The notes: generated from the sequence alone by a model not told the origin. DNA of 63,865 nt, filler included, from Candidatus Rokuibacteriota bacterium (GCA_031406795.1; 6 parts of 6 records of this genome joined end to end with filler, not necessarily neighbours in it), one strand, 5' to 3'; shown: positions 10,799 to 50,270, counted from the whole stretch's first letter. Numbers and translations are program-made.

Positions 10799-10974
10799 AG
10801 CAGATGTGCACATCTCTTCTGGTATGTGTTCACTGCCTCCGCGCGCGCTCTTCACTGCCTTGCCGGGACGCACCCGGACGCTCCCGATCGACTCGGGCAG
10901 CTTGTGCACGGAAATCGAGGGGCCGTTCAGGAAACGTTGCCTTCGCTTGGCTGGGCCCTTTTAGCAATCTCGGT

Positions 10975-11000
10975 GTAGGGGAGGGGTTCACCCCCTCCCG
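10975..11000 (+). repeat. GTAG-type REP, left
   Basis: GTAGGGGAGGGGTTCACCCCCTCCCG; inverted partner at 12564-12589. Confidence 0.75.
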
Positions 11001-11088
11001 TTTCCACGCACCCGGCCAAGTTCCTTTGTCAGGACGGAAAGACCGCCCCCCCCGAACGACGCTGCTACAATACGCGGAGGAGGGACGC

Positions 11089-12552: not shown

Positions 12553-12563
12553 GCCGGAGCTGC

Positions 12564-12589
12564 CGGGAGGGGATCAACCCCTCCCCTAC
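12564..12589 (-). repeat. GTAG-type REP, right
   Basis: Reverse complement GTAGGGGAGGGGTTGATCCCCTCCCG, 24/26 identical to 10975-11000. Confidence 0.75.
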
Positions 12590-12670
12590 GTTGAACTACA
12601 ACGATTGAGAATGACCACAGATCATGGCAGCAGAGTTGTTGCGATCGGCACGCTGGCCCGCGGCAGCCAA

Positions 12671-19253: not shown

Positions 19254-19276
19254 ATCTTGCGGAGGTTCCGTCGCCG

Positions 19277-19432
19277 TTAGTGCAGCCGGCCCATCAGCAA
19301 CAACACGAGCAGAATCAACAGGACAAGTCCAAGTCCACCGCTCGGGAAGTAGCCCCAGCTCTTGCTGTGGGGCCAGGTGGGCAGTGCGCCCACCAGCAAG
19401 AGAATCAGGACAATCAGCAGTATCAGTCCCAT
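19277..19432 (-). CDS. DUF3309 small membrane protein (absent from the ORF track)
   Basis: MGLILLIVLILLLVGALPTWPHSKSWGYFPSGGLG; AAGGAG RBS. Confidence 0.88.
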   Translation of the reverse strand: MGLILLIVLILLLVGALPTWPHSKSWGYFPSGGLGLVLLILLVLLLMGRLH

Positions 19433-19448
19433 GGCCAAACTCCTTTCG

Positions 19449-20120
19449 CTACTCGTGGAACTTCTTCGGGAACTGCTTGAGGATCCCGTCCGTCAGCGCA
19501 TCGGCGAACATCAGCATGTGCGCGTGACCTTTGTCGTAGGCCTGGATATCGGCCGCCCAGTCCTTTTTGAGGCGCGAGACAACCTCGGCCGTCGTGTAAT
19601 CGAGGTGCTTGTAGAGCAGCTCCTTGAGCGTCAGCACCGGCCAATTCGGGTTTGCGCCCGCGAGGAACACCGCGATCTCGTCCGCGTTCTTCTTCCAGCG
19701 CTCCTGACCCTTGCCCACGCCGTCGTTATCGCCGGCCTTCGCGGCCTTGACGATGTCGGCGGCGATCAGGATGTGGTCGCGCAGCAGCGCCGAAAGCTTC
19801 TTGCCGGCTTCTTCGCCGTAGACGGGCTTGATCGCGTTGCCGATGTCGTCCTGGTTGCGCAGGAGCCGCTCCGCGATCGGGCCGGCATCCTCGAGGCCGG
19901 CGAGCGAACTGATGATGAAATTGCGCGTGTAGACGATGTGCTCCTCCCAGAGCATGCGCATGGCGTTGCGCAGTTCCTGGTGGCTCATCGTCACCGACGC
20001 GGCACCGCCGCCCTTCTGAGACTCCTTCGCTGCCGGGCCGTTGGCCTTGACCGGCACATCGACCATCAGGAACACGGCGGCGACAAATGTTACGAAAGCC
20101 CCCAGCAAGTTCTTCTTCAC
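19449..20120 (-). CDS. Exported helical conserved hypothetical protein
   Basis: Signal peptide; MRMLWEEH, RLLRNQDDIG and spaced His residues. Confidence 0.75.
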   Translation of the reverse strand: MKKNLLGAFVTFVAAVFLMVDVPVKANGPAAKESQKGGGAASVTMSHQELRNAMRMLWEEHIVYTRNFIISSLAGLEDAGPIAERLLRNQDDIGNAIKPVYGEEAGKKLSALLRDHILIAADIVKAAKAGDNDGVGKGQERWKKNADEIAVFLAGANPNWPVLTLKELLYKHLDYTTAEVVSRLKKDWAADIQAYDKGHAHMLMFADALTDGILKQFPKKFHE

Positions 20121-22678: not shown

Positions 22679-22778
22679 NNNNNNNNNNNNNNNNNNNNNN
22701 NNNNNNNNNNNNNNNNNNNNNNTTAATTAATTAANNNNNNNNNNNNNNNNNNNNNNNNNNNNNNNNNNNNNNNNNNNN
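22679..22778. other. Artificial contig linker
   Basis: N-run, TTAATTAATTAA, N-run. Confidence 0.99.
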
Positions 22779-26706: not shown

Positions 26707-27672
26707 ATGAGGTTGGCCTGCAGGGTATTGATCCTGGCGGCGATCCAACTCGTGAATCTGCTGTTTTCATCGGCATGCACTTCTGATGGCAGAAACCTCA
26801 AGCGCTTGCCGCTGCCGGCAGGCGCACGTTCTTCGGCTGCCGTCCCGTCGCCCGGAGGCTGGCTGGATCACCTCAACTATTATCGCGCAACAGCATGTCT
26901 GTCCCCGGTCACTGAAAACACCGTGTGGAGCCATGGGGCTCGCAACCACGCCATCTACATCGTGAAGAACGACGTCTTCCAACATGACGAGGACCCTGAC
27001 AACACGTGTTTTTCTCCGGAAGGCCAGATTGCCGCCCGGCAGAGCAATCTGTTTGGTGGTTACGACACGAATGATACGGACTGGTCGGCAATCGACACCT
27101 GGATGCAGTCCCCCTTTCATGCTCTGGGAGTACTTGACCCGCGGTTGGTTCAGGTGGGTTACGGGAGCTACAAAGAGGCGGATGGCAATCTCAAGATGGG
27201 CGCAGCGCTGAACGTGATCGCCGGCATCAGACGCACCGCAGGCGCGGCCTATCCGATATTCTGGCCCGGCAATGGGACCACCATACCGATAAGCCTCCAC
27301 CTGGGCGGGTATCCTGACCCGCTCGCCAGCTGTCCCGGCTACCGCACGCCGAGCGGGCTTCCTCTCCTCGTCCAGATCGGTTCGGGCGATCTCACGCCAG
27401 TGGTTTCGGCGACATCCTTCACACAGGAGGGTCGGTCACTGGAGCATTGCGTCTTTGACGAAACCACCTACCGCAATCCGGACGGCCTTCAACAAGACCT
27501 GGGGCGCACCATCTTGGGGGCGCGCGACGCCATTGTACTCATCCCCCGCTCCCCCTTGTCGGCCGGAACGACCTATACGGCTTCCGTCACGGTCAACGGG
27601 CAGAGGCACACTTGGTCATTCAGCGTCGAAGGAAGCAGGGTCTCCTTCCTCAACCGCCGAGTCCGGCCATAA
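26707..27672 (+). CDS. CAP/SCP domain exported protein
   Basis: LNYYRA, ARNHA, HDED, WMQSPFH. Confidence 0.8.
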   Translation: MRLACRVLILAAIQLVNLLFSSACTSDGRNLKRLPLPAGARSSAAVPSPGGWLDHLNYYRATACLSPVTENTVWSHGARNHAIYIVKNDVFQHDEDPDNTCFSPEGQIAARQSNLFGGYDTNDTDWSAIDTWMQSPFHALGVLDPRLVQVGYGSYKEADGNLKMGAALNVIAGIRRTAGAAYPIFWPGNGTTIPISLHLGGYPDPLASCPGYRTPSGLPLLVQIGSGDLTPVVSATSFTQEGRSLEHCVFDETTYRNPDGLQQDLGRTILGARDAIVLIPRSPLSAGTTYTASVTVNGQRHTWSFSVEGSRVSFLNRRVRP

Positions 27673-28270
27673 ACCGGGCGCCGCTGCGGGACCCGCCAAA
27701 GCGAACTTCCCGTACCGGCGTATCTCTTCCAGGCCGCAGGATGGCACCAGCTCTCCCTGATAGAGGATGGCGTCCGGGCAGGCATCGCAAAGATCCCGTT
27801 TTCCTCTGACAAAACACGGCGGCGAGACGACGGTCACCGCCTGGTGGGTCGAGGCGGCGAAAAGCAGCCAGGGCTTGCACAAGGCACGAGCCAGGTAAGC
27901 GCGGACGATCGCTCTCAATCCGGCGTTGACCAGCACGCCGGCCAGCAGGACCGGCAAGTGGACCCGGGTCTGCTCCTTGTCCAGAAATGACAGATACTTT
28001 CCGGTGCCCCAGTGACAGCAAATCTGAAGAAGTTCGGCAAAACGTTTGTCCGTGTACCCAAGCGTTCTTCCATCCAGCACGAAGCTGAAGGCCTGCAGCG
28101 TATCCACCCGGATCGAGATGCCGGCCAGGCCCGCGCGCTTCAGGGCTTTGAGCCGGGCCTCGTCGAGCAGCCTGCCGTTGCTCAGGATCATCGGCCTCAC
28201 GCCCTTCCGCCGGAGGTAGCGGCCACGATACAAACCGTGGATGGAGCAGAAGCTGCAGACGATATGGCGG
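27670..28270 (-). pseudogene. Decayed, internally deleted radical SAM remnant
   Basis: CSFCSIH, ILSNGRLLDE..LKRAGL, then C-terminal CDACPDA...VPSC; far too short for an intact gene. Confidence 0.55.
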
Positions 28271-28379
28271 ACTTAGCGCCCTCCGGCTTCGGCCCGGGCT
28301 GCTGCGATCAGCATGCGCACGGCTTCGGGATGGCCAGGTCGAGCCTCGAAGAATGCGATCTGCAGAACCGGCAGGGCGG

Positions 28380-28818: not shown

Positions 28819-28908
28819 CTTCCTGTACTTCTCGGCCGCCATCGGGATCACCGCGCCCTCGACACCGGCATTGATCACGATCTGCCGGATCGGCTACTCG
28901 AGCGCCCG
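28819..28908 (-). pseudogene. groEL: groEL remnant A
   Basis: RALE*PIRQIVINAGVEGAVI. Confidence 0.85.
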
Positions 28909-29078
28909 GTTCCGGGAGCCCGCCTCTCTTGAGTAATTGGCCGCCCGGGATAACCGCCGGTGCAGCCGATGGGGGACGGTAGCGAACCCAGCCACGGCCG
29001 TTTGCGGGTTTAGTCGGGAGTTTTTGTGATACCTTGCCCGGGCGGAGTGGCGAAACGGTACCTCGAAGGGAGGATGCG

Positions 29079-29567
29079 ATGAGCGAGCAGAGCGAGTGGT
29101 ATTTCATCGTCGAAGAGGCCGGGGAACGGCGCCAGGAGGGACCCGTCCCGACGGAAAATCTCGTCGATATGGTTTCCTCCGGAGCCGTCACGGGCGACAC
29201 CCTCGTCTGGGGGGAAGGCATGGCCGAGTGGCTCCCGGCGTGCGAGGTGTCCGAATTCTCCCGGCACATTCACCAGGAGGTTGCCCCGCAGATTCTTGAG
29301 CCGGAGCCGGTGCCCGAGCCGGAGCTGATCGCCCCCCAGGAGGTTCCCCCCGCGGAGGTAGTTGAGGAGGACGCGGCCGGCGCCGTCGAGCCATCGGACC
29401 TCGTGACACTCGGGGATTTCGGCAACCACAGCGTCCAGTTCTCGAGATCCCGCAAGACGCTCCTGATCGGCACCAACGACTACCATGCGGGACCGCTCGA
29501 GCTGACGAAGCTCGATCTCCTGGAGTTCCTGACGGAGATGGAGAAGGCTGCCGGGCAAAGCGAATGA
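29079..29567 (+). CDS. GYF_2 (DUF4339) domain protein
   Basis: WYF...QEGPV...TLVWGEGMAEWLPA; GGAGG RBS. Confidence 0.85.
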   Translation: MSEQSEWYFIVEEAGERRQEGPVPTENLVDMVSSGAVTGDTLVWGEGMAEWLPACEVSEFSRHIHQEVAPQILEPEPVPEPELIAPQEVPPAEVVEEDAAGAVEPSDLVTLGDFGNHSVQFSRSRKTLLIGTNDYHAGPLELTKLDLLEFLTEMEKAAGQSE

Positions 29568-29589
29568 GTCTCAGCCGCCGTCACCGACG

Positions 29590-29745
29590 ATGATCGTCGA
29601 CTCGCTGGACCGCTTCCGCGACTACCTCGGCGTGCACCCGCGCTTCGCCGGCGTGGCGGAATTTTTCGAGGCAACGGACCTCGCGGCGCTCGCCGAGGGC
29701 CGTCACGAGATCGGCGAGCAGGGCTGCTTCGCGTTCACGCAACAC
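29590..29745 (+). pseudogene. YhcH/YjgK/YiaL family N-terminal fragment
   Basis: MIVDSL..Y.GVHPRF...DLAALAEGRHEIG, after which similarity stops. Confidence 0.7.
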
Positions 29746-29788
29746 GATGACCGTCAAATGGAGAATCATCCCCAAGACAGCGCGGCGG

Positions 29789-31294
29789 CTACTCGCCCAG
29801 AAGGCGGATCGCTTCCCCGGCGAGGACGATCCAACCGTCCCCGGTCGCTGCGTCGAGCGACCCACGCTTGACGAGCTGGCGCACATGCGCGGTGAACCGC
29901 TCGAGCGCCTGGCTGGCCTGGTGGGCGTTCTCGCCGTCCCTGAACGCGAGAGCTTTTTCGAGCGCCTGCAGCAGCTCGGTAGCACCGGCGTGGGTGAGCC
30001 CGCCCGCAGCCCGCAGCTCGGTCACCTCGCGGATGAGCCGCGCGATCTGGTCCTCGTCGTCCGGGAAGGCCGAGCCGAGGTCCGGAATCGTCCAGATCAC
30101 CGGGACCTGCGTCATGTACCCGGTTGAGTCGTCGATCGTCGCCACCATCCCCGCGATGCGGCCGCGGTCGCTGATGTCATACGCCTCGCTCGCCTGCCCG
30201 CCGTTGGTCCCGAGGTCCTGCATCCCGGTGGACGGGCTCCAGAGGAAGGCGCGGCGCTCCTGCCGGCCCGAGACCGGGTTTGCCGCCCAGCTCCACCCGA
30301 CCACCTGGTCGTGGTTGTTCATCGCGTGGGGTATGGTGCTGTTGAAGCTGCCGCCGAGGTTTCCCAGCGGGATCGTGCCGGTCTCGGGGGACCAGAACCA
30401 GGCCCCGCCCTGGTACGAGATCCCGGCCATGTGCCCGCGATCGTTGAACCCGGTCACGTCGACAAAGTCCCCTTCGACGAGCTGGCCGCAGTCCACGAAG
30501 CCGGCCTCGGCGCTCCAGACGAAGGGGTGCTTGTGGCCGTGGTGGTCCATCGAGAACACGCCGGCCACCTGGCCACGCTCGTTGACGAACGAGGCGGCGG
30601 AGTAAAACTCGCTCGGGGTCCCCAGCTCGAGGAATGAGCCGTCCGGCCGCCAGAGTGCGGCGTGGAAGGAGAGATCGTACTCGTCGGTGCCGCGCGCGTA
30701 CTCACCCACGACAAGGCCGTTGTCGTTGATGTCCGTCGGGAAGCCCTCGAGCCCGCCGGGGGGAAGCGTGAGCCGCTCGTAACCCCCGTCGCGCGTCCAG
30801 AGAAAGCCGGAGTTCCCAAAGGCGGAGGGACCCCAAGGATCGTCGCCGCTGCCGACGATGTCTCCCCGGTTGTTCATGGCAGAGATTGAGATCCCCGCGC
30901 CCCCCGGGAGCGCCCCAAGCGCGAGCATTCCCTCCACCGGGCTCCAGCGGAAGAGCTGAAAGCTCGGGGAGCCCCAGGCGTTGTCGACGGTGATGGTGCC
31001 CGCGATCTGGCCGCGCTCGTTGAGGGCGTCAGGGAAGAGTGCGTACCCATCCGCGGGGGGCTGCAGCACGAGCGGCTCAAGCAGGGGGGACCAGGAGACG
31101 CCATACCACAGTCCGTTGGCGTAGAGCCCGCCGACGACCTCCCCGCGATCGTTGACCATGTACGCCGAGTCCGAGTATCCGTCCATGGGAACCGGGAGGG
31201 GCGTGAGGGTGACCGGCTCGACGCCGGCGGCGAGGGACGGTGCGGCGGCGAGGAGCAGACAGGCACACAAACGAAGCGCGCTCGAAGCGATCAC
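29789..31294 (-). CDS. Secreted HAF-repeat protein with C-terminal FIMAH-like domain
   Basis: Repeated NxRGxVVG...AFxWS...GMxDLG units; signal peptide. Confidence 0.85.
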   Translation of the reverse strand: MIASSALRLCACLLLAAAPSLAAGVEPVTLTPLPVPMDGYSDSAYMVNDRGEVVGGLYANGLWYGVSWSPLLEPLVLQPPADGYALFPDALNERGQIAGTITVDNAWGSPSFQLFRWSPVEGMLALGALPGGAGISISAMNNRGDIVGSGDDPWGPSAFGNSGFLWTRDGGYERLTLPPGGLEGFPTDINDNGLVVGEYARGTDEYDLSFHAALWRPDGSFLELGTPSEFYSAASFVNERGQVAGVFSMDHHGHKHPFVWSAEAGFVDCGQLVEGDFVDVTGFNDRGHMAGISYQGGAWFWSPETGTIPLGNLGGSFNSTIPHAMNNHDQVVGWSWAANPVSGRQERRAFLWSPSTGMQDLGTNGGQASEAYDISDRGRIAGMVATIDDSTGYMTQVPVIWTIPDLGSAFPDDEDQIARLIREVTELRAAGGLTHAGATELLQALEKALAFRDGENAHQASQALERFTAHVRQLVKRGSLDAATGDGWIVLAGEAIRLLGE

Positions 31295-31548
31295 GGGCTA
31301 CCTCCATTCGATACGGGGATTTCGCCAAAACTAGAACAATCCGCCGGCGACGTCAAGTCATGTCCGCATCTCCCGCTCGAATCGACGTGCTGAACCAGCC
31401 CGACGCAGGTCGTGCCAGACTTGCCCATGGCGTCCGAACATCCGGGGCTTTCATTCCTTGCGCCTGATCCTCGCGGTCTCCACGCCGGAGGAACGGATGG
31501 CGGCGGTTCTCCTCCTTGAGCAAAGCGGCGCGCATCCTCCGATCATCC

Positions 31549-31656
31549 CTTCTTCCCGTTGATCAGGATGCAGGCGTCCTCGAGGATGGCCTCCATCCGC
31601 TCGGGCTTGGTCACGAAGTAGGGGCTCAAGTAGCCGCGGTCGAACTGCATCCCCTC
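31549..31656 (-). pseudogene. groEL: groEL remnant B
   Basis: [36 protein letters not shown]. Confidence 0.92.
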
Positions 31657-31914
31657 GGCGTAAATGGTCCGCCACAACTGGATATCCTGCGCTCGGTGTT
31701 TCAGCCGGCTGCGAGACATGTCGAGCAGGATGATGCCGACAACGCGCCGGACTCAGGAAATCAAGCCAGACCGCCGAACGCGCATTCGAGACCTGCGCTC
31801 AAGTTCAAGAGACAAGAAAGCTCCGCCTCTGCCGGCGCCACGATCGGGATGAACAACCGCCCCGAGAAAAGATAACCCTCCCCTGAATCGTCCACCACGC
31901 GCACCATAGAGTAC

Positions 31915-32138
31915 TCAGGCGGCTGCGTAACGACGAACCTCAACTTCGACTCCGGCGCGGACGGCTTCCTCCGCCTTCTTCAGCAGAGCGGTAGCTACAA
32001 TCTCGCCGACGTACTCCTCGCCGCAGTTCACGCAGACCTCAGCGGGGACCTTTTTCACCACGAGCGTTGTCCCGCCCCGCTCGAGCGTGATTGTCACCTC
32101 GCCGAGGCGCGTCTCACCGTTCTTGCAGACGACACAAA

Positions 32139-32142
<4 letters not shown>
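31915..32142 (-). CDS. YgiT-type zinc finger (MqsA-like) antitoxin
   Basis: CVVC...VPAEVCVNCGEEY. Confidence 0.9.
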
Positions 32143-32676
<534 letters not shown>

Positions 32677-33379
32677 TCAGAGTACACGAGAATCAATGCA
32701 AAAAAAAGCGGCAGGGCCCTGTCTCGGTCATGAAGAAGGTTCCCCGCAACGATCCGATGACCAGGATCCTGGCCCGATTTCGAGTACCGGGTCATCGTCG
32801 GGCTCACGACGCTCATCACCGCTCGCCATGAACCACGTCCACACCGGCACCTATTCCCCCTGAGACGGCGCGCAGCCGCAGGACTCCACCAACGCCTGCA
32901 TCGAAGCGGCGGAAGTGGGCCGCGACATACCTTACGAGAATATCGGAAAGCTCTTCGACCCCTGTTTTCCCGACGGGACTGCTTTCCAGGAAACTGTACT
33001 GTTGTGTCATCTGGTGCGAAATTGAATTATGAGGCAACCGTATCGACTCTATCCCCGCGGCGGCAGAATATCAGGGGATTTTTGCATTCGCCTTCAACGG
33101 ACAAGAGACATCAAGCGGCAACCTCGCCCGATTGTCTCACGGGGAAACTCAGGGATCCGGTGAGCCCCCATGGCTGTTTCTGATCCTGAATACTAATAAT
33201 CGCGAAACATTCCCTGCGGTTGCGTGCTCCGTGCTTCAGACGAAGCGTCGAATGGCGCATTTGTTGCAGTGAACGAGGCTCAAGGGATGCATCCTGACGA
33301 CACGGAGCAGATGCAATCCTGAAAAGCGATTCATCGGGCGGACCGTGCACGAGGATCCGAGCGGCTTCACGAGGGTTCA

Positions 33380-35122
33380 ATGACAGGACGGTCTGGGCAG
33401 GTGTTCGTCACGGCGCTCGCGGGGGTGCTGCTGGTCGTGTACTCAGCGGCGGCTAACCAAGGGCGAACGGTTGTCGACCTGCAGATCAATCGTACGACCA
33501 GCTCGATCCGGATCAAGAGTGCCGAAGGCGCAGCGGGGCTCGCCACGCTGATCAACCTCAACCCCGCGATCAATTCGTGGTATCTGCTTCGGCTCGAGGG
33601 GGGCGCCGCCGCGTCTGAAACAACGTACCACCTGCAGAATGCGAACCCCCGGGGCCAGACTCTGCTGCTTGAGGAGAGCAATCCGGGTGGCATCGTCATC
33701 GCGCAGGGGAAAGAACGCGCGGGGTGTGACCTCTGGAGCAACAAGGATGGCGGAGCCCTGGCGGCCGCCCGGCGATCAGCCGTCCCCTATGCCCCGCTGT
33801 GCAGCGAGAGAATCTATCTGCTCAATCCGACGCAAGGGCATCAGACGCCGATTGAAGCGGTCACCGATCTCTTGCGCGAGAGGGTTCCCGGCGGTGAAAA
33901 GATAGTTTCATTCGTGCGCGACACGTTTTTCGCGCGTTCGTACCTCAAGAAAGCGGAAGAAGAAGTGGCGTCGGTGCCAGTGGCTGTGCCGCCACAGAAG
34001 AAGCCGGTTGAGGGGCCGGCACCGGCCCTGGTAGATCCTGACGCAACTGCCGTAGCCGTGAAACCGCTCGATCTGGGCATCGAAATCGAGGGCTCGGTTG
34101 CCGGAAGCGCCATTCCGGGCGATTGGTATCCGGCAAGGGATATCCCGGGCGTTTACGTGAGCGTGATCACGCCGGGCAGAATCGCGCCGAAGATCCTTCG
34201 GAGCTACCCGATGCGCGTGAACAACCTCGGAAGCGGCGAGTCTGGCCAACTCGTGTACCTCGTCTCCTTCGATCTTGCCCAGTTCGATGTGCACTATGTC
34301 CTCGGAACCACGCACCCGGGGGTCGAGTGGTCCGGCCGTGTTCAGAACCGGATGAAGGAGACGTCACTCCCGGGGCCAGACGGAATCGGCACCGGCAGAC
34401 CCTTAGTCCGGACCGGCTTCATCAACCCGTCAGACGCGCCCCGCACCGTAGCCGGTTTTGTCGGCGGATTTAAGCGCTACCACGGCGCCTTCAGGGACGG
34501 GCCGCTCGCTCAGAAGAATCACGGCAGCCATTACGGCTTTCTGGAGGAAGGCGTGCTGTTCAGCACCCTTCAGCCGGAACTTGCGACGCTGTACGTGCTC
34601 GACGACGGCCGGGTCGACATGAAGACCTGGACGGCCGAAGACAACAAGATTCTGCTGCCGCGGGCCAGATCCGCTCTGCAAAATGGCGTCCCCCTCGTCA
34701 CGGAGCTTGACGCGACCGGGCGCGTCCCGCTTCCCGGCCCCCTGGTCAACCGCTGGGGTGATGGCAACTGGTCGGCTGCCGCGGATTTGAAACAGCAGAC
34801 CATGCGCGCGGCAGTTGCGCTGCAGGAATCCCAGGGGCGGAGGTATCTCGTGTATGCCTTCTTCTGGAGCGCCACGCCGTCAGCCGTTGCCCGGGTCTTT
34901 CAGGCTTACCAGTGTCGCTATGGCATGCCTCTCGACATGAATGCACTTGAACACACCTACCTCGCCGTGTACAAGAAGCAGGGTTCGAACATCGCCGTCC
35001 AACACCTGATCCGCACGATGGCGGACGTGGACATGACGGGCAAAGGGAAGCGTGTCCCCCGTTTTCTCGGGTATCCCGACGACAGGGATTTCTTCTACCT
35101 GACGAGGAGGGAAACGCCATGA
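33380..35122 (+). CDS. Exported protein with phosphodiester glycosidase (NAGPA-like) C-terminal region
   Basis: GFVGGFK, QNGVPLV, TMRAAV, PLDMN pattern; family call tentative. Confidence 0.6.
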   Translation: MTGRSGQVFVTALAGVLLVVYSAAANQGRTVVDLQINRTTSSIRIKSAEGAAGLATLINLNPAINSWYLLRLEGGAAASETTYHLQNANPRGQTLLLEESNPGGIVIAQGKERAGCDLWSNKDGGALAAARRSAVPYAPLCSERIYLLNPTQGHQTPIEAVTDLLRERVPGGEKIVSFVRDTFFARSYLKKAEEEVASVPVAVPPQKKPVEGPAPALVDPDATAVAVKPLDLGIEIEGSVAGSAIPGDWYPARDIPGVYVSVITPGRIAPKILRSYPMRVNNLGSGESGQLVYLVSFDLAQFDVHYVLGTTHPGVEWSGRVQNRMKETSLPGPDGIGTGRPLVRTGFINPSDAPRTVAGFVGGFKRYHGAFRDGPLAQKNHGSHYGFLEEGVLFSTLQPELATLYVLDDGRVDMKTWTAEDNKILLPRARSALQNGVPLVTELDATGRVPLPGPLVNRWGDGNWSAAADLKQQTMRAAVALQESQGRRYLVYAFFWSATPSAVARVFQAYQCRYGMPLDMNALEHTYLAVYKKQGSNIAVQHLIRTMADVDMTGKGKRVPRFLGYPDDRDFFYLTRRETP

Positions 35123-36141
35123 GCGCGCGCGGGGCGCTCTCGGCGAACCTCGCCACGCTGGTGTCCCTGCTCGTGATTCCGCACTCCCTTGCGACGGCGC
35201 AGACGCTCAAGGAGCAGAACGAAGCCCTGCTTGAAAAGATTCGGGTGGTGCACAACTTGTCCGAAGTGCAGAGCGCTGCGGTCGGTGAGATTTTTCGTGC
35301 CTCCGGTGCTCTCGGCCAGGGAAACCCGGCCGTGACGAAACACCCGATGAGTCCGTCGGAGTGCGAGAAGAAGGTGGTCGCCTCAGGCGCCCGCCATGAG
35401 AGTGAGGCCTTTGAGAAGATATGCCGGGCAAAATACATGGCCCCCCTCTACAACCCGGCCACAGAAAGACCCGAGAACGCCACTGCCTGCATCGACCGGT
35501 TCGAGTTCCCCGACATCCCCTGCGTCTACCCCGTGGTCTGGGTGCGCGCCCGCGAGGCCGCGCTGATCTGTCAGGCCATGGGCAAACGCATCTGTGACGC
35601 CCATGAATGGGAAGGCGCCTGCGCGGGGGCGCTCCTGCCCCCTGATTATCGCTTCGACCTTGCGCGAGGCGTCCCGCCGAACGCGGCGGTGGAGCGGATG
35701 CGCGCCATCCACAACAGGAACCGCGAAGCCGGCAAGACCTGGGCGTACGGCGAGCGGTATCAGAAAGGCATCTGCGCTTCTTCAAGCACCAAGACCTCCG
35801 GCTGTACCGGAGGAAGCTGGGACGGGTGCGGCTCGAACACGTTTCCTGCGGGGAGTTTTCCTGAATGCCGCAGCGCGCTGGGTGTGTACGACCTCCAGGG
35901 CAATGCGGCGGAACACATGAACCTGCCGTTCAACGAAAGCCAGATGTCGAGCCGCGGCAGCGGCGTACTTGGGTATACGGAGATGAAAGGCAGTTGGTTC
36001 ATCTTCGACACGTACTATGCGCATCCCGACTGGTGCCGCTGGCGGGCGCCGTTCTGGCACGGCAGCCGGGTGATGGACGAGCACAGCCACGAGAACTACC
36101 ATCTCGGTTTTCGTTGCTGCAAGACGATCGAGGGAGAGTAG
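35119..36141 (+). CDS. Exported FGE-sulfatase (SUMF1) fold protein
   Basis: CIDRFEFP, GKRICDAHEWEGAC, GVYDLQGNAAE, GFRCC. Confidence 0.85.
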   Translation: MSARGALSANLATLVSLLVIPHSLATAQTLKEQNEALLEKIRVVHNLSEVQSAAVGEIFRASGALGQGNPAVTKHPMSPSECEKKVVASGARHESEAFEKICRAKYMAPLYNPATERPENATACIDRFEFPDIPCVYPVVWVRAREAALICQAMGKRICDAHEWEGACAGALLPPDYRFDLARGVPPNAAVERMRAIHNRNREAGKTWAYGERYQKGICASSSTKTSGCTGGSWDGCGSNTFPAGSFPECRSALGVYDLQGNAAEHMNLPFNESQMSSRGSGVLGYTEMKGSWFIFDTYYAHPDWCRWRAPFWHGSRVMDEHSHENYHLGFRCCKTIEGE

Positions 36142-36156
36142 CGCAGGCCCGCGGGG

Positions 36157-37143
36157 TCAGTTTCGGGGGGACAAATGCGCGTGCTGAACCGGCTGCCCCT
36201 GCTCACGCATCATGAATCGTCGGGCTGCCGGCATGGCGCCCTCATCGCTCAACAGACTGGAGAGCTTCGGGTCTTCGAGAATGTCGTACAGGGATCGCGG
36301 TTCGCCGTCGATCAGGACGACCTCGCTGACAAGCCTGATTCCGTGGCTGTAGTCCGCATAGTTCGCGCGGTGAATCGTGCTCAGCGGCTGAATGGGCTTT
36401 CCCGAAGGCCGATGCCAGCCGTAGATGGCGATCTTCCCCTGATTTTCGATCAACCGATTGCTGAGCACGACATCTTTCTTGTGGCCGGAAACCAGGGCGC
36501 CGGGGGGACAGCCAAGGGCTTTGAACTGCTCCTTGATCTTCTGGTCGTGCGCAACGTAGTAGCCGGTGGACCGCATCCGGGGGCCGGCGGGAAGCGGTGC
36601 CGGCGCGCAACGGACGTCTGCCTGCTGGAAGATCGCGTCCACGATCTTCCTCGTCGGCAGGGCAAAGCCGAGCCTGGTCGCTGTCTCCTTCGCCGTGTAC
36701 AGGTTCATCGGCACGTGAAGAAAATCGCGATCGGAACCGACCGAGAGATAGTCGGGCATGGCAAACACCGTTGCCGTCACGGTTTTCCCGTCGTCGAACT
36801 TCCGGGTGAGCTGAACGGGCTTCAGTTTCCTCAGGAAATCGGGAATGTTGCCCTGGGTGAGCTGGGTCTCGATGACCTGCTCTCGACCGGGCTCGTCCAG
36901 TTCCGAGACGGAGGCTGCGAACATCGATCCGGTCGGTGCGCAGTCCTGCCTTTGCGGAATCTTGGCAGCCAGATCCGCCAGCAATGTCTGCACATCGGCC
37001 GCTTCTTTGCTCTTTGCGGAGGGAGACCCGAGGCAGAACACCACGCTGCCGAAGAGCAGCAGCACCCAGACTTTCATTCCGCTTCCCTGGTAGGTCATGG
37101 GGAACGTATAACACATCGAATCCGCAGCAGTCATCTTATTCAT
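36157..37143 (-). CDS. Conserved exported hypothetical protein (GHKKDVV type); true start may be further in
   Basis: PDYLSVGSD, GHKKDVV, IYGWH, PIQP, YADYSHGIRL. Confidence 0.75.
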   Translation of the reverse strand: MNKMTAADSMCYTFPMTYQGSGMKVWVLLLFGSVVFCLGSPSAKSKEAADVQTLLADLAAKIPQRQDCAPTGSMFAASVSELDEPGREQVIETQLTQGNIPDFLRKLKPVQLTRKFDDGKTVTATVFAMPDYLSVGSDRDFLHVPMNLYTAKETATRLGFALPTRKIVDAIFQQADVRCAPAPLPAGPRMRSTGYYVAHDQKIKEQFKALGCPPGALVSGHKKDVVLSNRLIENQGKIAIYGWHRPSGKPIQPLSTIHRANYADYSHGIRLVSEVVLIDGEPRSLYDILEDPKLSSLLSDEGAMPAARRFMMREQGQPVQHAHLSPRN

Positions 37144-37193
37144 TCGCGCGACGGCCGCAATTTCCCCTGAGGCAACGCGCGCGGCGCTGGCGG

Positions 37194-38273
37194 TCAGGTC
37201 TCGGGGTCGGTTCCCTTTTCCGTCACTGGCTGATTGCTGTCAAGGGGCACCTCGGGTCCAAGGAGTACCGCAATCCAGTGCGCGCTTTCATTGTTCTCGC
37301 AGGCAAACTTCAAGGTCATGGTCAACGGTATGCACAGAACCATGCCGATCGGACCGAGCAAGCTTCCCCAGAAGACCAACGAGAGAAAGACAACCAGTGT
37401 GGACAGGCCGAGTTTTTGCCCCATGAGCCTCGTTTCGATTACATTGTCGAGAATGAAGTTGACGGCCATGAATCCGGCCGTTGCCAGCACGGCGGGGCCT
37501 ATCCCCAATTGGACAAGAGCAAGAAGCACTGCAGGAACGGCGGCGATTGAGGAGCCGACACTCGGCACGTAGTTGAGCAGAAAGGCCAGGAAGCCCCAGA
37601 GAACGGGAAAATCCACGCCGAGAATGAACAGCCATGCCCCGATCAGAACCCCGGTGGCCAGACTGACGAGGGTCTTGATGACCACGTAACGCTCAATATC
37701 GACGTAGAACCGTGTGAACTCGGGAAATGTTTGGCGAGGATCACCGAGAACAGCGCGGAGCTTGACGGGAAAACTAGAAGCCTCGAACAGGATAAAGGCC
37801 ACGGTGAGCAGGATCAGGAGGAAGTACTTGAACACCGAGCCCAGCTTCGCGAGCAAACGGGGAGTCAGGCTCAACACTTTGTCCGGATTTACGATTTGCA
37901 GCAGGATCTGGTCCATGCCCCGGATGCCTTTGCTCGCGAAATACTCCTGCAATTCCGCGACGTGCGCCTGTATCCGCGTTTGATACGCAGGCAACTCGTT
38001 GTAGAAATTGGTGACGGCCACGGCCGCGATTGCGCCGAGAATCAGCAGGATGGCGACCATGCCGGTCACCACGAGCAGGACCGCGACGATGGAGGGAAAG
38101 CGTTTCCGCTCGAGCCAAAGTACCGGCGGCGTCCCGAGCATGGCGAGGAAGACCGCCATCAGGGAGGACTCCATGGCCGTCCGCGCCTGATAGATGCCCC
38201 CGATGACGAGAACGAGCGCTGCTGCGCTCACGAGGAATCTGATTCCCCGCCGAGAATCAACCGGTTCAATCAC
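37194..38273 (-). CDS. AI-2E family transporter
   Basis: Multi-TM; LNYVPSVGS, WGSLLGPIGMVL..PLT. Confidence 0.9.
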   Translation of the reverse strand: MIEPVDSRRGIRFLVSAAALVLVIGGIYQARTAMESSLMAVFLAMLGTPPVLWLERKRFPSIVAVLLVVTGMVAILLILGAIAAVAVTNFYNELPAYQTRIQAHVAELQEYFASKGIRGMDQILLQIVNPDKVLSLTPRLLAKLGSVFKYFLLILLTVAFILFEASSFPVKLRAVLGDPRQTFPEFTRFYVDIERYVVIKTLVSLATGVLIGAWLFILGVDFPVLWGFLAFLLNYVPSVGSSIAAVPAVLLALVQLGIGPAVLATAGFMAVNFILDNVIETRLMGQKLGLSTLVVFLSLVFWGSLLGPIGMVLCIPLTMTLKFACENNESAHWIAVLLGPEVPLDSNQPVTEKGTDPET

Positions 38274-38457
38274 GGACCAGCCCCTGTTGGATCCTGAAAA
38301 CCCTCGGCCGACGCGGGGAGGCCGGCCAATCGGTCACCTTCTCCGCGACAAGTCAGGAGAAGTCTACCACCGCAGTAACGGAAGCAGGGGCTGCGGACTC
38401 GGACAGCTCCCAGGACTTCAGCCGCCGCCCCATCGGCGCAAGCCGCCCGGCCGACCG

Positions 38458-38769
38458 TTACTTTCGTCGGGCAAGCGTGCCGAGGATGTACCCGAGCCCC
38501 GCTGCGATGGCGACGGCCTGCCACGGATTCTCATGGACATAGACGTCCGTGGCCTTGGCCGCCTCTTTGGCCTTTTCCTCCGCCGCCTGCTCAAGCTCTA
38601 CCACCCAAGTTCTGGCGGCGTCGAGGGAACCCTCCACGCGGGTTCTCACGGCGTTGATCTTCTCACCCTGCTGTGCGGCGGTTGCCTTCAACAGGTCCTC
38701 GGCATCGGCGATGACGACCCTGAGGTCCGCGGCCAGCTTCTCCTTCGACGTAACACGTTTCCTCGGCAT
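38458..38769 (-). CDS. DUF883 (ElaB/YqjD) family
   Basis: DAEDLLKAT...YVHENPWQAVAIAAG. Confidence 0.9.
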   Translation of the reverse strand: MPRKRVTSKEKLAADLRVVIADAEDLLKATAAQQGEKINAVRTRVEGSLDAARTWVVELEQAAEEKAKEAAKATDVYVHENPWQAVAIAAGLGYILGTLARRK

Positions 38770-38795
38770 GTCCCCCTCCTGCTTCGACCAGCATT

Positions 38796-38885
38796 CTACC
38801 TTCTGCGGCCCCAATAATAGCCGCCGCCCCCGCCGAACAGGACGACCAACACCACAATCAGGATGATCAACTCTGTTGAACTCAC
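38796..38885 (-). CDS. 29-aa membrane microprotein
   Basis: [38 protein letters not shown]; paralog at 42673-42759. Confidence 0.75.
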   Translation of the reverse strand: MSSTELIILIVVLVVLFGGGGGYYWGRRR

Positions 38886-39133
38886 GGCTCCGCTCCTTTG
38901 AAGTTGGAGACGACCAATCACCCAACTGGAATATGATCCGAATTCATCGACCCGTCGATAGGGCAAAACCATACCATGGGACCTTTTCCCTCTCCAGGTT
39001 GCGCCACATCTGGGCGTAGCCCGACCTGAGTCGCAGGGCCCTGCGGAAGGGCTCGGCCTTGACTTTGGCCGCTGCGGAACCCAAATTGATCTTGAGACGG
39101 AGAACAAACCCCCAGTAGTGAAAGGAGCGTCCC

Positions 39134-39334
39134 ATGCCAGTCGCGAAAGTCATCGAGTTGATCTCCGAAGGCGCCACGATGGAGGAGGCCGTGTCGAAAG
39201 CGGCCGCGAAGGCCACGAAGACCCTGCGAAATGTCACCGCCGTCAACGTGAAGAACATCAAGGCGCTGGTGGAGAATGGCAAGGTCGTCAGATACCGGGT
39301 GAACACCAAGGTGACCTTCGTCCTCGAGGACTGA
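39134..39334 (+). CDS. Dodecin family protein
   Basis: VAKVIELI...YRVNTKVTF. Confidence 0.9.
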   Translation: MPVAKVIELISEGATMEEAVSKAAAKATKTLRNVTAVNVKNIKALVENGKVVRYRVNTKVTFVLED

Positions 39335-39436
39335 CACCACCCAGGATCGAACTTCCGGCCCGCCATCGGGGAGACTGTCTTCAGTACCTCGGCCGCGGCG
39401 ACCTGAAACATGGGTTCGTGCGCGCTCGCTGCTGGC

Positions 39437-39826
39437 TCAGTCCAGCAGGTCCCGGGGCACGTTGCCGCCGTTGGCGGCGATGCGCGCGAGCACGGTCTTG
39501 TGCAGCCACATGTTCATCTTCGCGGAGTCCCCCATCAGCTCCGCGGGACAGCCCAGCTCCGTGGCCAACTCCTTGCGCGCCGCGAGGCTGCTGTCGATCT
39601 CGAGGAGCTTCAGCAGGTCGACGATGGAGGTACGCCAGTTCAGCTTCTGCGGGTTCGCCGCCGCGCGTTTTTCGAGCTGCGCGACGACGTCGACGAGCGC
39701 GACGGGCGTGGGTGGAGGCGGCGCGACTGGCGCTGCAGGCGGGCCCGCGGGTGCGGCGGAGGGGGGAGGGGCGGCGGCCGCCTTGCCGAGGCCGAGCTTT
39801 TCGAGGATCTTCCCGAAGAATCCCAT
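39437..39826 (-). CDS. DUF3597 domain protein
   Basis: LNWRTSIVDLLKLL..DSSL.ARKELA...DSAKMNMWLHK. Confidence 0.9.
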   Translation of the reverse strand: MGFFGKILEKLGLGKAAAAPPPSAAPAGPPAAPVAPPPPTPVALVDVVAQLEKRAAANPQKLNWRTSIVDLLKLLEIDSSLAARKELATELGCPAELMGDSAKMNMWLHKTVLARIAANGGNVPRDLLD

Positions 39827-40179
39827 GGCGCGCTCCTTGGTGGCTGGTGGCACGGGGCGGCCCTGTCGGATTGACCGGGCGCGGCCTCCGTCGATATGAC
39901 ATAAGCTAGCGACAAACGGGGCGGTGGTCAAGCGGAGGGGGCGCACGCCGCCGCCGCGGGGCGCTCCCGATCTTCCGCGAGATCATGCTCCAGATCTACA
40001 AGGACCGGCTCGTCGGGGAGGCGCCGCGGTTCCCCCGCGAGATCGAGGACGGGATCGACGCGTACCTGGCGCTGCAGGCGGTGCCGGAGGCGATCCGCGT
40101 CGAACGCCAGAGCGGATTCACGACAGCCAACGATTGCTTCTGACGACGGCGAGAATCAACCATCCCCCCGCGTCGTAGG

Positions 40180-40521
40180 TCAACTCCGCCGCTCTGCGCC
40201 CCTCAGCGCCGGAAAACCAAGCGCGAACTGAAGGGCGTTCCCAGCCTCGAGCATGCGGGGCCGAGGCAGGGTTGTAATCAGCGCACCGATCCTGCCCCTG
40301 GAAACCGTCTGAAGGTGATCGAGGTTCACGGCGCACTCGCGGAGCATTCCATCGCCCGGTCCCAGCACGACTTCGGTCGGAATGTCGCGTATGACGGAAG
40401 TCACCGGTGCAACCGTGACTTCTCCGAGGAATTCAAGTGCGGAGTCGCGTGTCAGGATCAGGACCGGGCGACGTTTGTCCGGCGCGTCGAAGCGGTACCA
40501 GCGGACCTCGCCGCGTCTCAT
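40180..40521 (-). CDS. PemK/MazF family toxin
   Basis: MRRGEV...KRRPVLILT...VTVAPVT...VNLDHLQTV. Confidence 0.92.
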   Translation of the reverse strand: MRRGEVRWYRFDAPDKRRPVLILTRDSALEFLGEVTVAPVTSVIRDIPTEVVLGPGDGMLRECAVNLDHLQTVSRGRIGALITTLPRPRMLEAGNALQFALGFPALRGAERRS

Positions 40522-40751
40522 GGCTCACCCCAGACCTGCTCACCCTCCCACGCTGAAAACTCCTTCTCGCCGACCGGCTTGCCTCGATAGCCGTCGCGGT
40601 GCTTGAGTTCCAGTTCCTTCGTCTTGAGCTCTTCGAGGGCGCGTCGCAGTGCGGTTCGCGCGAACGCCGAGCGCGTTGTGCCAAGTCGTTTTGCTGCGCG
40701 GTCCACCGCAGTCACCAGGCTTTCGTCGAGAGTCATCTGAACTGTTTTCAT
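40518..40751 (-). CDS. CopG/RHH antitoxin
   Basis: MKTVQMTLDESL..VD......TRSAF.R.AL; stop overlaps the toxin start. Confidence 0.9.
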   Translation of the reverse strand: MKTVQMTLDESLVTAVDRAAKRLGTTRSAFARTALRRALEELKTKELELKHRDGYRGKPVGEKEFSAWEGEQVWGEP

Positions 40752-40769
40752 CGTCCGCCCTCCATCGTG

Positions 40770-40791
40770 CATAGCTATCCTGATGGCTATG
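40770..40791. promoter_or_regulatory. Putative TA operator inverted repeat
   Basis: CATAGCTATC-CT-GATGGCTATG just upstream of the antitoxin. Confidence 0.5.
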
Positions 40792-40840
40792 ATACTCCAC
40801 ATGACGGATGACAGCAAAGCTGACGTGAAAGAACACCTCC

Positions 40841-41048
40841 GGCGATCACGCACTCGGTCGCAATCATCGCCCTCTTCCTGTTCTTCTTGACTTCCATCAC
40901 GATCACCGCGCCCTCGACGCCGGAGTTGATCACGATCTGACGGATCGGCTCCTCGAGCGCGCGCTTGACGATCGAAACGCCGACCGCCTGGTCGCCTTCG
41001 AGCTTCAGATCGTCGAGATCCGACACGCAGCGCAGCAGCGCCACGCCG
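40841..41048 (-). pseudogene. groEL: groEL remnant C (internal deletion)
   Basis: GVALLRC...GDQAVGVSIVKRALEEPIRQIVINSGVEGAVIV joined to MIATECVIA. Confidence 0.92.
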
Positions 41049-41060
41049 GTCAAGTTCAAC

Positions 41061-41414
41061 CTGATGAGCAGTGTCTCGGTGAATCATCCGGCCGGACGCG
41101 ACCCGCAACGCGGCTAATTCGAGAAGGGGGTCGTGTGGCTGCTCCGCGGTGTGCTGCCGCCTGCGAGGGACAATCAGGAAGCAGCCGACTTTCTCCATGA
41201 CAGCACAGGTACATCGAGTTCGTACGTGCGCTGGGCGGCGGTCCGCCCGGACACACTCCTGGAAGGCGACGTCTCCGAGTACACGCTGCACGAAAACCTC
41301 GTGAGCAGTCTCTACCGTCCGAACAGCACCAACAGGGCGATCATCGCGCACTTCATGCGCGAGATGGTGAGAAGCGAAGTGGCGTTGGATCGTTGGAGCG
41401 GGAGGTCCTGGTAA
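41061..41414 (+). pseudogene. NAD(P)H-binding oxidoreductase C-terminal fragment
   Basis: LMSSVSV, internal stop, WAAVRPDTL, NRAIIAHFM. Confidence 0.6.
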
Positions 41415-41616
41415 TCGTCAACGCCAACGCTCCGAGCAACTGACGTCCGCGAGACCTCACAAAACAACTGCGCAGACGGTCACCCCGGCGGGGATGTTGC
41501 TATTCAGCTTGACCCCCGCCTCGGTTCCGCATAAATTCATTTCATTCACCGCGTCGTCGCCACTCTGGCCTTGGCGCATGGCGCATCTGGACGTCGATTG
41601 CGGGAGGGGTCGTGGC

Positions 41617-42180
41617 ATGAAAAAAATTCTGATGGTATTTGTCGCGGGGCTCGTGCTGCTCTCCGTGGCGGCTAGAGCAGGGGCGGCCGACGATCTCGCG
41701 AAGCGAATGAGCGACCTTCTCGTCACGGCGCCGGCTGCCGGGCACTGGCAGTTCAAAGTGGCCGACGTGTCGAAAATGATCGCCGAGAAGAAGGGCGACT
41801 TCATCGTCGTCGACGTGCGCCCGGAGAAGCCGGGGCAGCAACCGGGGAAGATCGCGGGTTCGATCTACATCCCTTACAGCCAGATTCTCACTGCGGAGAA
41901 TCTCGCCAAACTGCCCAAGGACAAGAAGGTCATCCTCGTCTGCGTGACCGGGCAGACCCAGAATCTCCCCGTACTCGCCCTGCGGACGCTCGGTTACGAC
42001 GCGTACACGATGTCCTTCGGTATGTCATCGTGGATCAAGGGCTACCTCGGCGGCAAACTGATGCAAGATGCGATCGCAGCAGCAGACTACCCGGTCGAGG
42101 CAATCAGCACGGCGCCTGCAGCCCCCGCGCCGACTCCGACCCCGACCAAAGCCCCGGCGTCGGGCGGGTACGGCAACTAG
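41617..42180 (+). CDS. Exported rhodanese-like protein
   Basis: Signal peptide, [24 protein letters not shown]. Confidence 0.88.
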
Positions 42181-42189
42181 CCGCAGCTG

Positions 42190-42376
42190 GGCCGCCGGGC
42201 AGGCCGCCCATCTTCTTGTCTTCCTCGGGCTTGTCGGCGATCACGCACTCGGTCGTGACCATCAGGCCGGCGATCAACGCCGCGTTCTGCAGTGCTGGCC
42301 GGGTGACCTTGGTCGGGTCGATGATCCCCGTCTCGATCATGTCTATCGCAAGTCGCTCCTGCAGCTTCTCCTTGTC
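42190..42376 (-). pseudogene. groEL: groEL remnant D (internal deletion)
   Basis: [10 protein letters not shown] joined to [46 protein letters not shown]. Confidence 0.93.
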
Positions 42377-42379
42377 GCA

Positions 42380-42660
42380 GCCCCTTGACGGCAGGCTGAC
42401 GATCGAAATCGCCGCCGTCGAGTTCGACGACGCGCACGCCGCGGCACGCGGGACAATCCTGCCCGGAAGGTACGTGGCGCTTCTGCTGACCGACACCGGC
42501 TGCGGCATGGACGCGGCGGCCCTGGAGAAGATCTTCGACCCGTTCTTCACGACCAAGCCGAAGGGCGTGGGCACCGGCCTGGGCCTGGCCACCGTGTACG
42601 GGATCGTCAAGTAGTCCGACGGGCACATCTGGGCCGACTCGGAGCCCGGCGTCGGCACGA
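42380..42660 (+). pseudogene. Histidine kinase HATPase fragment
   Basis: GRLTIE...DTGCGM...[19 protein letters not shown] ; resembles 46480-46750. Confidence 0.85.
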
Positions 42661-42672
42661 AGGACCGGAAGT

Positions 42673-42759
42673 CTACCTTCTGCGACTCCATTAATAACCG
42701 CCACCGCCGCCGAACAGAATGACCAGCACCACGATCAGGATGAGCATCTCAGTCGACAT
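42673..42759 (-). pseudogene. Microprotein paralog with premature stop
   Basis: [27 protein letters not shown]. Confidence 0.75.
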
Positions 42760-42995
42760 GGCACCCTCCTTTTGGTTGCAGACGACCAATATTCCATTTG
42801 AAATGTATGCAGGATTCATCGATCTGTCGACGGGGTGAAAACCCCATTATCCTCTGCGGCGACCCGGGTCAGCCCTCGCCCGCAGGTCCACCCGCTCACC
42901 CTTGACTTTGGCCGTTGCGGAACGGAGAATCAACCTCCGGGGAGAGTCTTCCGAACGGCTCGAGAGAAACAGCGGGGGGCAGGAGGGAGGAATCT

Positions 42996-48287: not shown

Positions 48288-48387
48288 NNNNNNNNNNNNN
48301 NNNNNNNNNNNNNNNNNNNNNNNNNNNNNNNTTAATTAATTAANNNNNNNNNNNNNNNNNNNNNNNNNNNNNNNNNNNNNNNNNNNN
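48288..48387. other. Artificial contig linker
   Basis: N-run, TTAATTAATTAA, N-run. Confidence 0.99.
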
Positions 48388-50170: not shown

Positions 50171-50270
50171 NNNNNNNNNNNNNNNNNNNNNNNNNNNNNN
50201 NNNNNNNNNNNNNNTTAATTAATTAANNNNNNNNNNNNNNNNNNNNNNNNNNNNNNNNNNNNNNNNNNNN
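50171..50270. other. Artificial contig linker
   Basis: N-run, TTAATTAATTAA, N-run. Confidence 0.99.

Follow-up and report, generated by a model that had tools for sequence, protein, structure and literature searches.

The stretch of DNA analysed here (63,865 nt, called the window) comes from Candidatus Rokuibacteriota bacterium (GCA_031406795.1), and it contains four pieces of groEL, a chaperonin gene, which all lie on the minus strand with unrelated cargo genes between them. Together with a relic of the flank that follows groEL, these pieces have, in our judgement, about an even chance of being the non-functional scars of an array that grew by groEL-anchored accretion, possibly aided by an ISCR-like IS91 element. 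The window consists of six contigs of one metagenome-assembled genome (MAG) joined via N44-TTAATTAATTAA-N44 spacers (22679-22778, 48288-48387, 50171-50270, 60329-60428, and 62160-62259); it is not one molecule, and features are not readable across the joins. All groEL pieces are confined to a single 25.5-kb contig (22779-48287).

Detection was performed with a GroEL hidden Markov model (HMM) built from 66 full-length GroELs, taken from loci found by searching species representatives with piece D (53-79% identity, many phyla; these matches served for HMM building alone). When 1,688 six-frame segments of at least 10 residues, representing the whole window, were searched, matches were obtained in exactly four places, each on the minus strand, and no intact groEL was found in any of the six frames. 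Piece A (28819-28911, to 28795 with a decayed continuation) carries codons ~442-473 and then ~513 onward; its profile match is weak (28837-28893, HMM 449-467, E 0.005), it contains an in-frame TAG, and its nucleotide identity is 85% to piece C across 94 nt and 86-87% to groEL of the nearest relative, G002. Piece B (31549-31659, codons 190-226; HMM 189-225, E 1.2e-14) is 93% identical to one partial G002 copy (F3, below) and 91% to the intact one. Piece C (40841-41048), with codons 415-473 joined to 513-522, gave a match at 40871-41047 (HMM 415-474, E 1.7e-16) plus the TECVIA piece at 40841-40868, and is 92% identical to G002 groEL. Piece D (42191-42383) has codons 358-370 joined to 485-538 and is 90-92% identical to the G002 copies; the main match (42206-42343, HMM 486-531, E 7e-19) is accompanied by a second part (42347-42379, HMM 359-369), weak alone and with 84% nucleotide identity to G002 groEL, and the 3′ end is cut ~14 codons short of the stop by the end of a rhodanese gene. 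Searches against PDB gave E values of 1.7e-12 for C (GroEL residues 414-471) and 5e-14 for D (~357-369 and 486-538). By homology the pieces belong to the GroEL/Cpn60 family (PF00118; HMM E 1e-14 to 7e-19 for B, C, and D, and for A the weak match together with its nucleotide identities), and none of them, at 32-66 codons each, retains the full-length open frame of ~545 codons. In 44 rhodanese-homologue loci (634,169 nt) the same HMM gave no match at E<=1, and in 41 metagenome loci (283,317 nt) its one match was an ordinary full-length groEL; since these controls gave no such pieces, four within 14 kb are far beyond chance. The four pieces, first reported in a preliminary description made from the sequence alone, are thus confirmed by translations, HMM, and PDB searches as a real observation. 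That description had also recorded overlaps between A and C and between C and D, an order not colinear with the gene, and internal deletions in C and D, all of which were verified; codons 474-512 are gone from C and 371-484 from D.

An assembly artefact, in which conserved groEL words made the assembler join unrelated contigs, would agree with the fact that the pieces are the most conserved GroEL motifs. Independently built per-run contigs (Logan) were compared with the window; three runs of one study, from three samples, contain the stretch. One per-run contig (27500-31601) runs through A into both of its flanks and takes in the left junction of B, whose right junction is on contigs beginning at 31599 (two runs). 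For C, the inner joint and the junction to its left are both on a contig spanning 40034-40909, while contigs from 40944 (two runs) carry its right junction and the rhodanese gene, extending in one run as far as the left junction of D. Neither the inner joint nor the right junction of D appeared in the listed per-run pieces. Per-run contigs break within B, C, and D, where depth is 3- to 20-fold higher as conserved words from other organisms accumulate. Those junctions of groEL with non-groEL DNA that these contigs cover are real and reproducible. Of the junctions that the preliminary description wished to see spanned, A is bridged whole, B and C are covered on either outer side, and D is covered on the left, but the middles of B, C, and D are not spanned. 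Against an artefact, each flank contig includes a groEL/non-groEL junction recurring in runs of the three samples, the independent assemblies of relatives show like pieces, and one of them (G004) has an identical inner joint. We consider this explanation very improbable.

The arrangement that carries our interpretation was found in the nearest relative. RNase R encoded on the first contig of the window is 92% identical to that of G002, a MAG labelled Candidatus Rokubacteria, and 85% to that of another MAG, G003; G002-G006 alone make up one phylum-level group in the collection. A PF00118 search of G002, followed by the GroEL HMM and blastn, resolved an array at G002:C1:375411-394993 with an intact groES-groEL and four partial copies, on the plus strand throughout. 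groES (375026-375355) lies upstream of the intact groEL, G0 (375411-377065), in which two frameshifts may be long-read errors. The partial copies are F1 (378026-378357; codons 87-96, 272-290, 444-459, and 479 to the end), F2 (384701-385670; codons 228 to the end), F3 (391340-392650; from 19 nt before the start to the end, without codons 133-165 and 227-320), and F4 (394654-394830; codons 487 to the end). Their 5′ limits vary (codons -6, 87, 228, and 487), but a terminator flank is common to all five copies up to one point (G0 nt 377192). Identity to G0, over 233-1009 nt, is 84% for F4, 89% for F1, 92-95% for F3, and 96% for F2. The homology that such an anchor would need is present between copies, those of G002 being 84-96% identical to G0 and the window pieces 86-93% identical to G002 groEL.

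Cargo in this array was assigned by Pfam annotation of 204 six-frame segments. Between G0 and F1 lies an MNT-HepT toxin-antitoxin pair; between F1 and F2, an IS91-family transposase gene right behind F1 and then pieces of surface-protein genes; between F2 and F3, a sigma-factor fragment, a glycosyltransferase, and unknown genes; and between F3 and F4, an internally deleted IS91 copy right behind F3 and then a DUF433-DUF5615 pair. After F4 follows an ordinary Fe-S/CCG oxidoreductase gene. The intact gene standing first, the constant flank end, the variable 5′ limits, and the differing cargo are as repeated groEL-anchored recombination predicts, and four successive events of the kind proposed below would reproduce the G002 order exactly.

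Several features link the window to this array. Directly upstream of piece A, the minus strand carries a relic of a groEL stop (TAA at 29012-29010) and terminator flank (29014-28899), which matches the flank of G0 with 75% identity; the junction with A falls within the second hairpin, and the coding part of the groEL copy to which the relic belonged is gone. A therefore follows the end of a lost groEL copy, like F1 after G0, and it begins at codon 442, nearly where the third piece of F1 begins (444). One inner joint, codons 473|513 with a few filler bases, is common to A, C, and a fragment in G004 (C315:40523-40785; codons 418-473 joined to 513-543). A and C are thus a single fragment, rearranged before it was copied, that is present twice; their overlap is real, but they are not, as had been proposed, remnants of separate groEL genes. 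In G004, another species, this fragment occupies a third context, with an ISL3 transposase remnant before it and the groEL stop, the flank, and a convergent kinase gene after it. Copying within the array is also indicated by segment 38786-39080, which has a second, 71-90% identical copy at 42663-42923 on the minus strand and contains a small-membrane-protein segment. Other breakpoints recur as well: codons 226-228 (the 3′ end of B, the break in F3, and the 5′ end of F2) and 485-487 (the main piece of D, and F4), in addition to 473 (A, C, and G004). They may mean that the fragments share an ancestry or that certain sites break preferentially. In F1, C, and D, several colinear pieces are patched together. 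The words CTCG, GTTC, and CTTG are present at some breakpoints (F2, A/F1) and absent at others, and no claim is built on them; the 290|444 inner joint of F1 has a short shared motif, GCTCGAGGA; inner joints are deletions, not acquisition joins. A 226|321 joint in B, as in F3, was dropped as the alignment was too weak.

The following scheme is proposed, in which we infer the recombination steps, their order, and any role of a transposase. Incoming DNA beginning inside the conserved groEL would cross over homologously with the resident gene, importing the donor 3′ part, the flank, and the DNA behind the flank. The other end would be closed via an illegitimate join farther upstream in the resident copy, or the event would be a single crossover of a circle. 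Each event would restore one intact groEL, place new cargo behind its terminator flank, and push the older copy, now 5′-truncated, downstream together with the earlier cargo. Displaced copies would decay via internal deletions, and fragments would be shuffled and duplicated. An IS91-family (ISCR-like) element in the flank of some units may supply circular intermediates, but would not be needed in every unit. The window would then represent an older, more eroded and reshuffled array.

A number of observations weigh against this scheme. No donor, circular form, or recombination product was observed. On the window contig, no intact groEL lies within 6 kb upstream of D, and, save for the flank before A, the 3′ end and flank that mark the units of G002 are missing from the pieces; because of this lack, further deletions and rearrangements must be assumed for the order D, C, B, A to fit. 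The degree to which the G002 copies have diverged from G0, as given above, departs from the age order that the scheme would predict. Shared breakpoints could reflect common descent instead of mechanism. For contiguity through B, C, and D the scheme depends on the original assembly, the Logan contigs being broken inside them, and G006, a member of the same group, has a single groEL with no array within 6 kb. We place groEL-anchored recombination first, at an even chance, followed by copying driven by IS91, which is unlikely, and then by plain duplication with decay, which is less probable again.

For IS91 as the driver, one-ended rolling-circle transposition would miss terIS, copy a variable 3′ part of groEL, and re-insert the units nearby; units would consist of the groEL 3′ part, flank, and IS91, and the window would hold their decayed remains. 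The transposase genes right behind F1 and F3 occupy one and the same flank point, a site that is uninterrupted in the flank of F2; comparison with the F2 flank bounds the insertion to ~G002 378533-379927, with GTTC near the right end. When G002, G003, and G004 (a 3.6-Mb set) were searched with Y2_Tnp, the three strongest of five matches were the IS91 copies behind F1 and F3, with two weaker matches elsewhere (G002:C1:164135 and G003:C51). The protein is truly of the IS91 family, being 48% identical to a transposase of a Trichlorobacter plasmid and ~35% to annotated IS91-family transposases. A relic of an IS91-family (Y2 HUH) transposase gene was also detected inside the window array at 39352-39435 (84 nt, plus strand); it corresponds to the N-terminal zinc-binding region, has a 1-nt deletion, and is 80% identical to G002:C1:378761-378845 by blastn, whereas unmasked tblastx of the G002 IS91 against the window gave GC-rich noise alone. 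The earlier statement that no transposase is visible thus holds for intact genes, no integrase or transposase domain having been found when six-frame segments were scanned against Pfam (347 from contig 22779-48287, each at least 40 residues long, and 117 long ones from the other contigs), but fails for this relic. Constant 3′ and variable 5′ ends fit one-ended transposition, which is reported at 1-14% in IS91 and IS1294 (PMC13181058), and groES-groEL-ISCR and truncated intI1-groEL fusions are documented in resistance regions (PMC12542671, PMC4606065).

On the other hand, the flanks of F2, F4, and G0 are without IS91, and so is the groEL interruption in G003. IS91 relics at G002:C6, G003:C51, and G006:C4 have no groEL piece within 1.5 kb, the relic in the window is on the strand opposite to the groEL pieces and 1.4 kb from C, and no groEL match was found on the Trichlorobacter plasmid, which has 14 places matching the transposase. 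Because of the units without IS91, the relics without groEL, and the plasmid without groEL, groEL-anchored recombination is ranked above IS91-driven copying. The plasmid itself (Trichlorobacter lovleyi pIAE1, 290 kb), which carries the nearest plasmid-borne relative of the G002 transposase, has one of its 14 matching places beside a Phd/YoeB pair, and their number points to an expanded IS91-family element, to go by the sequence matches.

Distribution among relatives bears on the simpler possibility that local groEL duplicates decayed, being deleted and cut by unrelated mobile genes with no anchoring on groEL. In a PF00118 search of 40 genomes around G002, exactly one match was obtained in 33. 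Searching the 40 with the 52-residue C-terminal part of D gave 5 matches in G002, 4 in G004, two each in 2 genomes (G018 and G024, which have two full-length groEL genes each), one in 33, and none in 3. Extra partial 3′ copies were present only in G002 and G004; none occurred in the 35 outgroup genomes (those outside G002-G006), where nearly all matches were in full-length open frames (at least 538 residues) and a shorter frame of 192 residues in G017 was part of one frameshifted gene. The protein encoded by D is 81-88% identical to the G002 and G004 copies and at most 70% to those of the 35 outgroup genomes; being closest to in-group copies, the pieces stem from the lineage's own groEL.

Decay of paralogs would suit the pseudogene features (the stop in A and the multiple internal deletions), the segmental duplication of 38786-39080 described above, the relatives with two full-length genes, and the single truncated genes near the pieces. 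The latter are a radical-SAM fragment, N-terminally truncated (27619-28272, minus strand; E 0.0012, a weak match below the Pfam cut-off), a DUF386 (YhcH) fragment (29590-29760, plus strand; profile positions 1-54 of 145), a frameshifted DUF4258 gene, and a histidine-kinase catalytic-domain fragment (HATPase_c; 42380-42680, plus strand), which stands back to back with D and is 76% identical to a hybrid kinase gene close by (46473-46753). Each of them is found a single time, compared with four pieces of groEL; equally frequent fragments of other housekeeping genes had been named in the preliminary description as speaking against a role for groEL. Decay leaves unexplained why the extra copies in G002 are co-oriented and share one flank end with different cargo behind each, why the same 473|513 fragment is found in three contexts and two genomes, and why the pattern is limited to a small group among the 40 genomes. 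It was ranked third and is regarded as unlikely.

Two other members of the group, G003 and G004, also carry groEL pieces, and the alternation of fragments and cargo that was to be sought in related genomes is thus seen in the G002 array, with pieces in G003 and G004 as well; the IS91/ISCR elements that were likewise to be sought are those behind F1 and F3. In G003, contig C9 has, on one strand, a groEL cut after codon 85, behind which stands an 11-kb island of type I restriction-modification and toxin-antitoxin genes, among them a HigB toxin; groEL pieces of codons 136-197, 282-340, and 334-397 lie downstream of it, and codons 207-227 and 277-337 are represented on a second contig. This stretch of C9 looks like a defence island inserted within a groEL copy. 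The interrupted end forms an open frame (18807-19742, minus strand) in which groEL codons 1-85 are fused in frame to PRiA4_ORF3 (plasmid pRiA4b ORF-3-like), and behind it come HsdM, a DUF4143 ATPase, HsdS, HigB with an M78 peptidase, and HsdR. In G004, one contig ends in the flank of an intact groESL, two contigs begin inside groEL, and a separate piece spans codons 144-168. In G006, a second chaperonin gene (G006:C2:249053-250516) matches PF00118 at E 1e-104 and the bacterial GroEL profile weakly; on its sequence it is divergent or group II-like.

Cargo beside the pieces differs among relatives, as was expected of repeated acquisition: the contig has almost nothing in common order with G002, G003, and G004 except the groEL pieces. 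The idea of the preliminary description that cargo was gained repeatedly in connection with groEL, each gain leaving a scar and with a link to IS91/ISCR, is supported by these relatives, but its integron-like part is not. No integrase was found by six-frame Pfam scans in the window contig or the G002 array, attC sites not being examined, and intI tyrosine recombinase was found in neither the 347 contig segments nor the 117 of the other contigs. Integrase-driven tandem islands at the 3′ end of groEL, with displaced ends left behind as at tRNA genes, would account for the co-oriented 3′ fragments behind the intact gene in G002. This is most improbable, since tyrosine or serine recombinase domains were absent from the window contig (347 segments) and the G002 array (204), the fragments range from 55 to more than 540 codons, and no common repeat was found at the junctions, with no repeat family flanking the pieces.

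Truncated groEL beside ISCR elements is a long-noted oddity of resistance regions, and to our knowledge all members of the ISCR3 group carry groEL remnants. Such modules are the nearest known kin of the array. The modules (ISCR3 group and intI1-groEL; groES-groEL-ISCR21/27 in Tn125) resemble G002 in having a transposase downstream of groEL or its 3′ fragment; further likenesses are the IS91 relic in the window array and the accessory genes that travel beside groEL remnants. Unlike them, the array is chromosomal, has up to five groEL copies, and belongs to an uncultured lineage labelled Rokubacteria; its groEL pieces come from the host lineage's own gene and are not foreign, its cargo consists of toxin-antitoxin, restriction-modification, and stress genes instead of resistance genes, and several units are without IS91. 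With one-ended transposition of IS91, IS801, and IS1294 it would share one constant end and a variable extent of co-mobilised DNA; G002 shows differing starts and a common flank end, but two copies are without IS91 and the window pieces are without the 3′ end.

Tandem island arrays at tRNA and tmRNA genes similarly have an intact target and then co-oriented, displaced 3′ fragments with islands between; here, in contrast, no integrase was detected, fragments are long and differ greatly in length, and the target is an essential protein-coding gene. Sedentary chromosomal integrons are likewise arrays of small accessory cassettes rich in toxin-antitoxin pairs, but no intI was found here and the spacers are gene fragments instead of recombination sites. 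Homology-facilitated illegitimate recombination, which has been seen in transformation experiments, also lets a conserved anchor gain unrelated DNA, and the copies here are 84-96% identical over hundreds of bases. We know of no natural array built on one housekeeping anchor, and no description of chromosomal groEL-fragment arrays was found in full-text searches, which is not proof of their absence.

Tentatively, and with less confidence than in the accretion itself, groEL may be viewed as an integrase-free, RecA-dependent "universal attachment site" in this lineage, DNA that starts with groEL being captured behind it; since groEL is nearly identical across species, any such DNA would be capturable. 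If so, arrays of exchangeable defence, toxin-antitoxin, and stress cassettes parted by groEL scars would be expected, rearranged groEL fragments of the 473|513 type would travel with cargo, and, with IS91/ISCR in the flank, the truncated groEL dragged along by clinical ISCR elements would be explained. The pairing known from ISCR is in any case found here on the chromosome of an uncultured soil/sediment lineage, as whole arrays with defence and toxin-antitoxin cargo. Should groEL anchoring be true, it would constitute a recombinase-independent route of gene capture exploiting a highly conserved bacterial gene, and a natural model for the origin of ISCR-groEL modules. In practice, groEL arrays break short-read assemblies at groEL, as in G004, and both cpn60-based typing and counts of marker genes in MAGs can be misled by them.

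The remaining cargo of the window contig is as follows. Toxin-antitoxin genes on the minus strand (31915-32692) comprise an MqsA-like antitoxin (31915-32142), DUF433 (32422-32649), and the frameshifted DUF4258. This last, a toxin-like gene behind the DUF433 antitoxin (32142-32692), is split across two frames and is a frameshift pseudogene or an assembly error. Next is a three-gene module on both strands (33380-37143) encoding a 580-aa unknown protein with no Pfam family, an FGE-sulfatase-like protein, and, on the other strand, a 328-aa unknown protein. Both an uncultured delta proteobacterium MAG and a Bryobacterales (Acidobacteria) MAG have this module too (45-72% identity); a Terriglobia MAG locus has the first gene alone and then the contig end. 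Flanks differ among these loci (L001, L002, and L003), and the module may be conserved or transferred, as far as the comparison suggests. No groEL pieces lie beside the loci of the 580-aa protein (L001-L003), and the L002 genome is without a PF00118 match. Contigs of run X4, from a 90-95% similar organism in another study, join 32819/37226, 37158/39097, and 38518/42894, skipping cargo, and some X4 joints skip the 33-37 kb region and other cargo; with short sides (29-64 nt), these joints hint at presence/absence variation.

Further along are an AI-2E transporter, DUF883, a small "GGGGGYY" membrane protein, dodecin, and DUF3597 (37194-39946), and then an RHH antitoxin and MazF/PemK toxin cassette (40180-40750, minus strand), which begins ~90 nt downstream of C. 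The rhodanese gene (41494-42180, plus strand) lies between C and D. Two metagenome contigs (L128 and L129) are 82-86% identical over this gene; the similarity ends at the rhodanese stop codon, behind which a membrane protein or NUDIX gene stands in place of D, and no groEL pieces were found beside rhodanese neighbours in genome or metagenome loci.

Two paralogous tiny genes (38796-38880 and 42691-42819, minus strand) encode a membrane peptide with the motif LFGGGGGYY; ~200 nt upstream of each is conserved, and one is beside DUF883, the other beside the kinase fragment. A short GC-rich palindrome resembling repetitive extragenic palindromes (REP-like) in the flanks of F2 and F4 of G002 (385757-385788 and 394918-394944) recurs with 89-97% identity on the first contig of the window, at 10972-11003 and 12561-12590.

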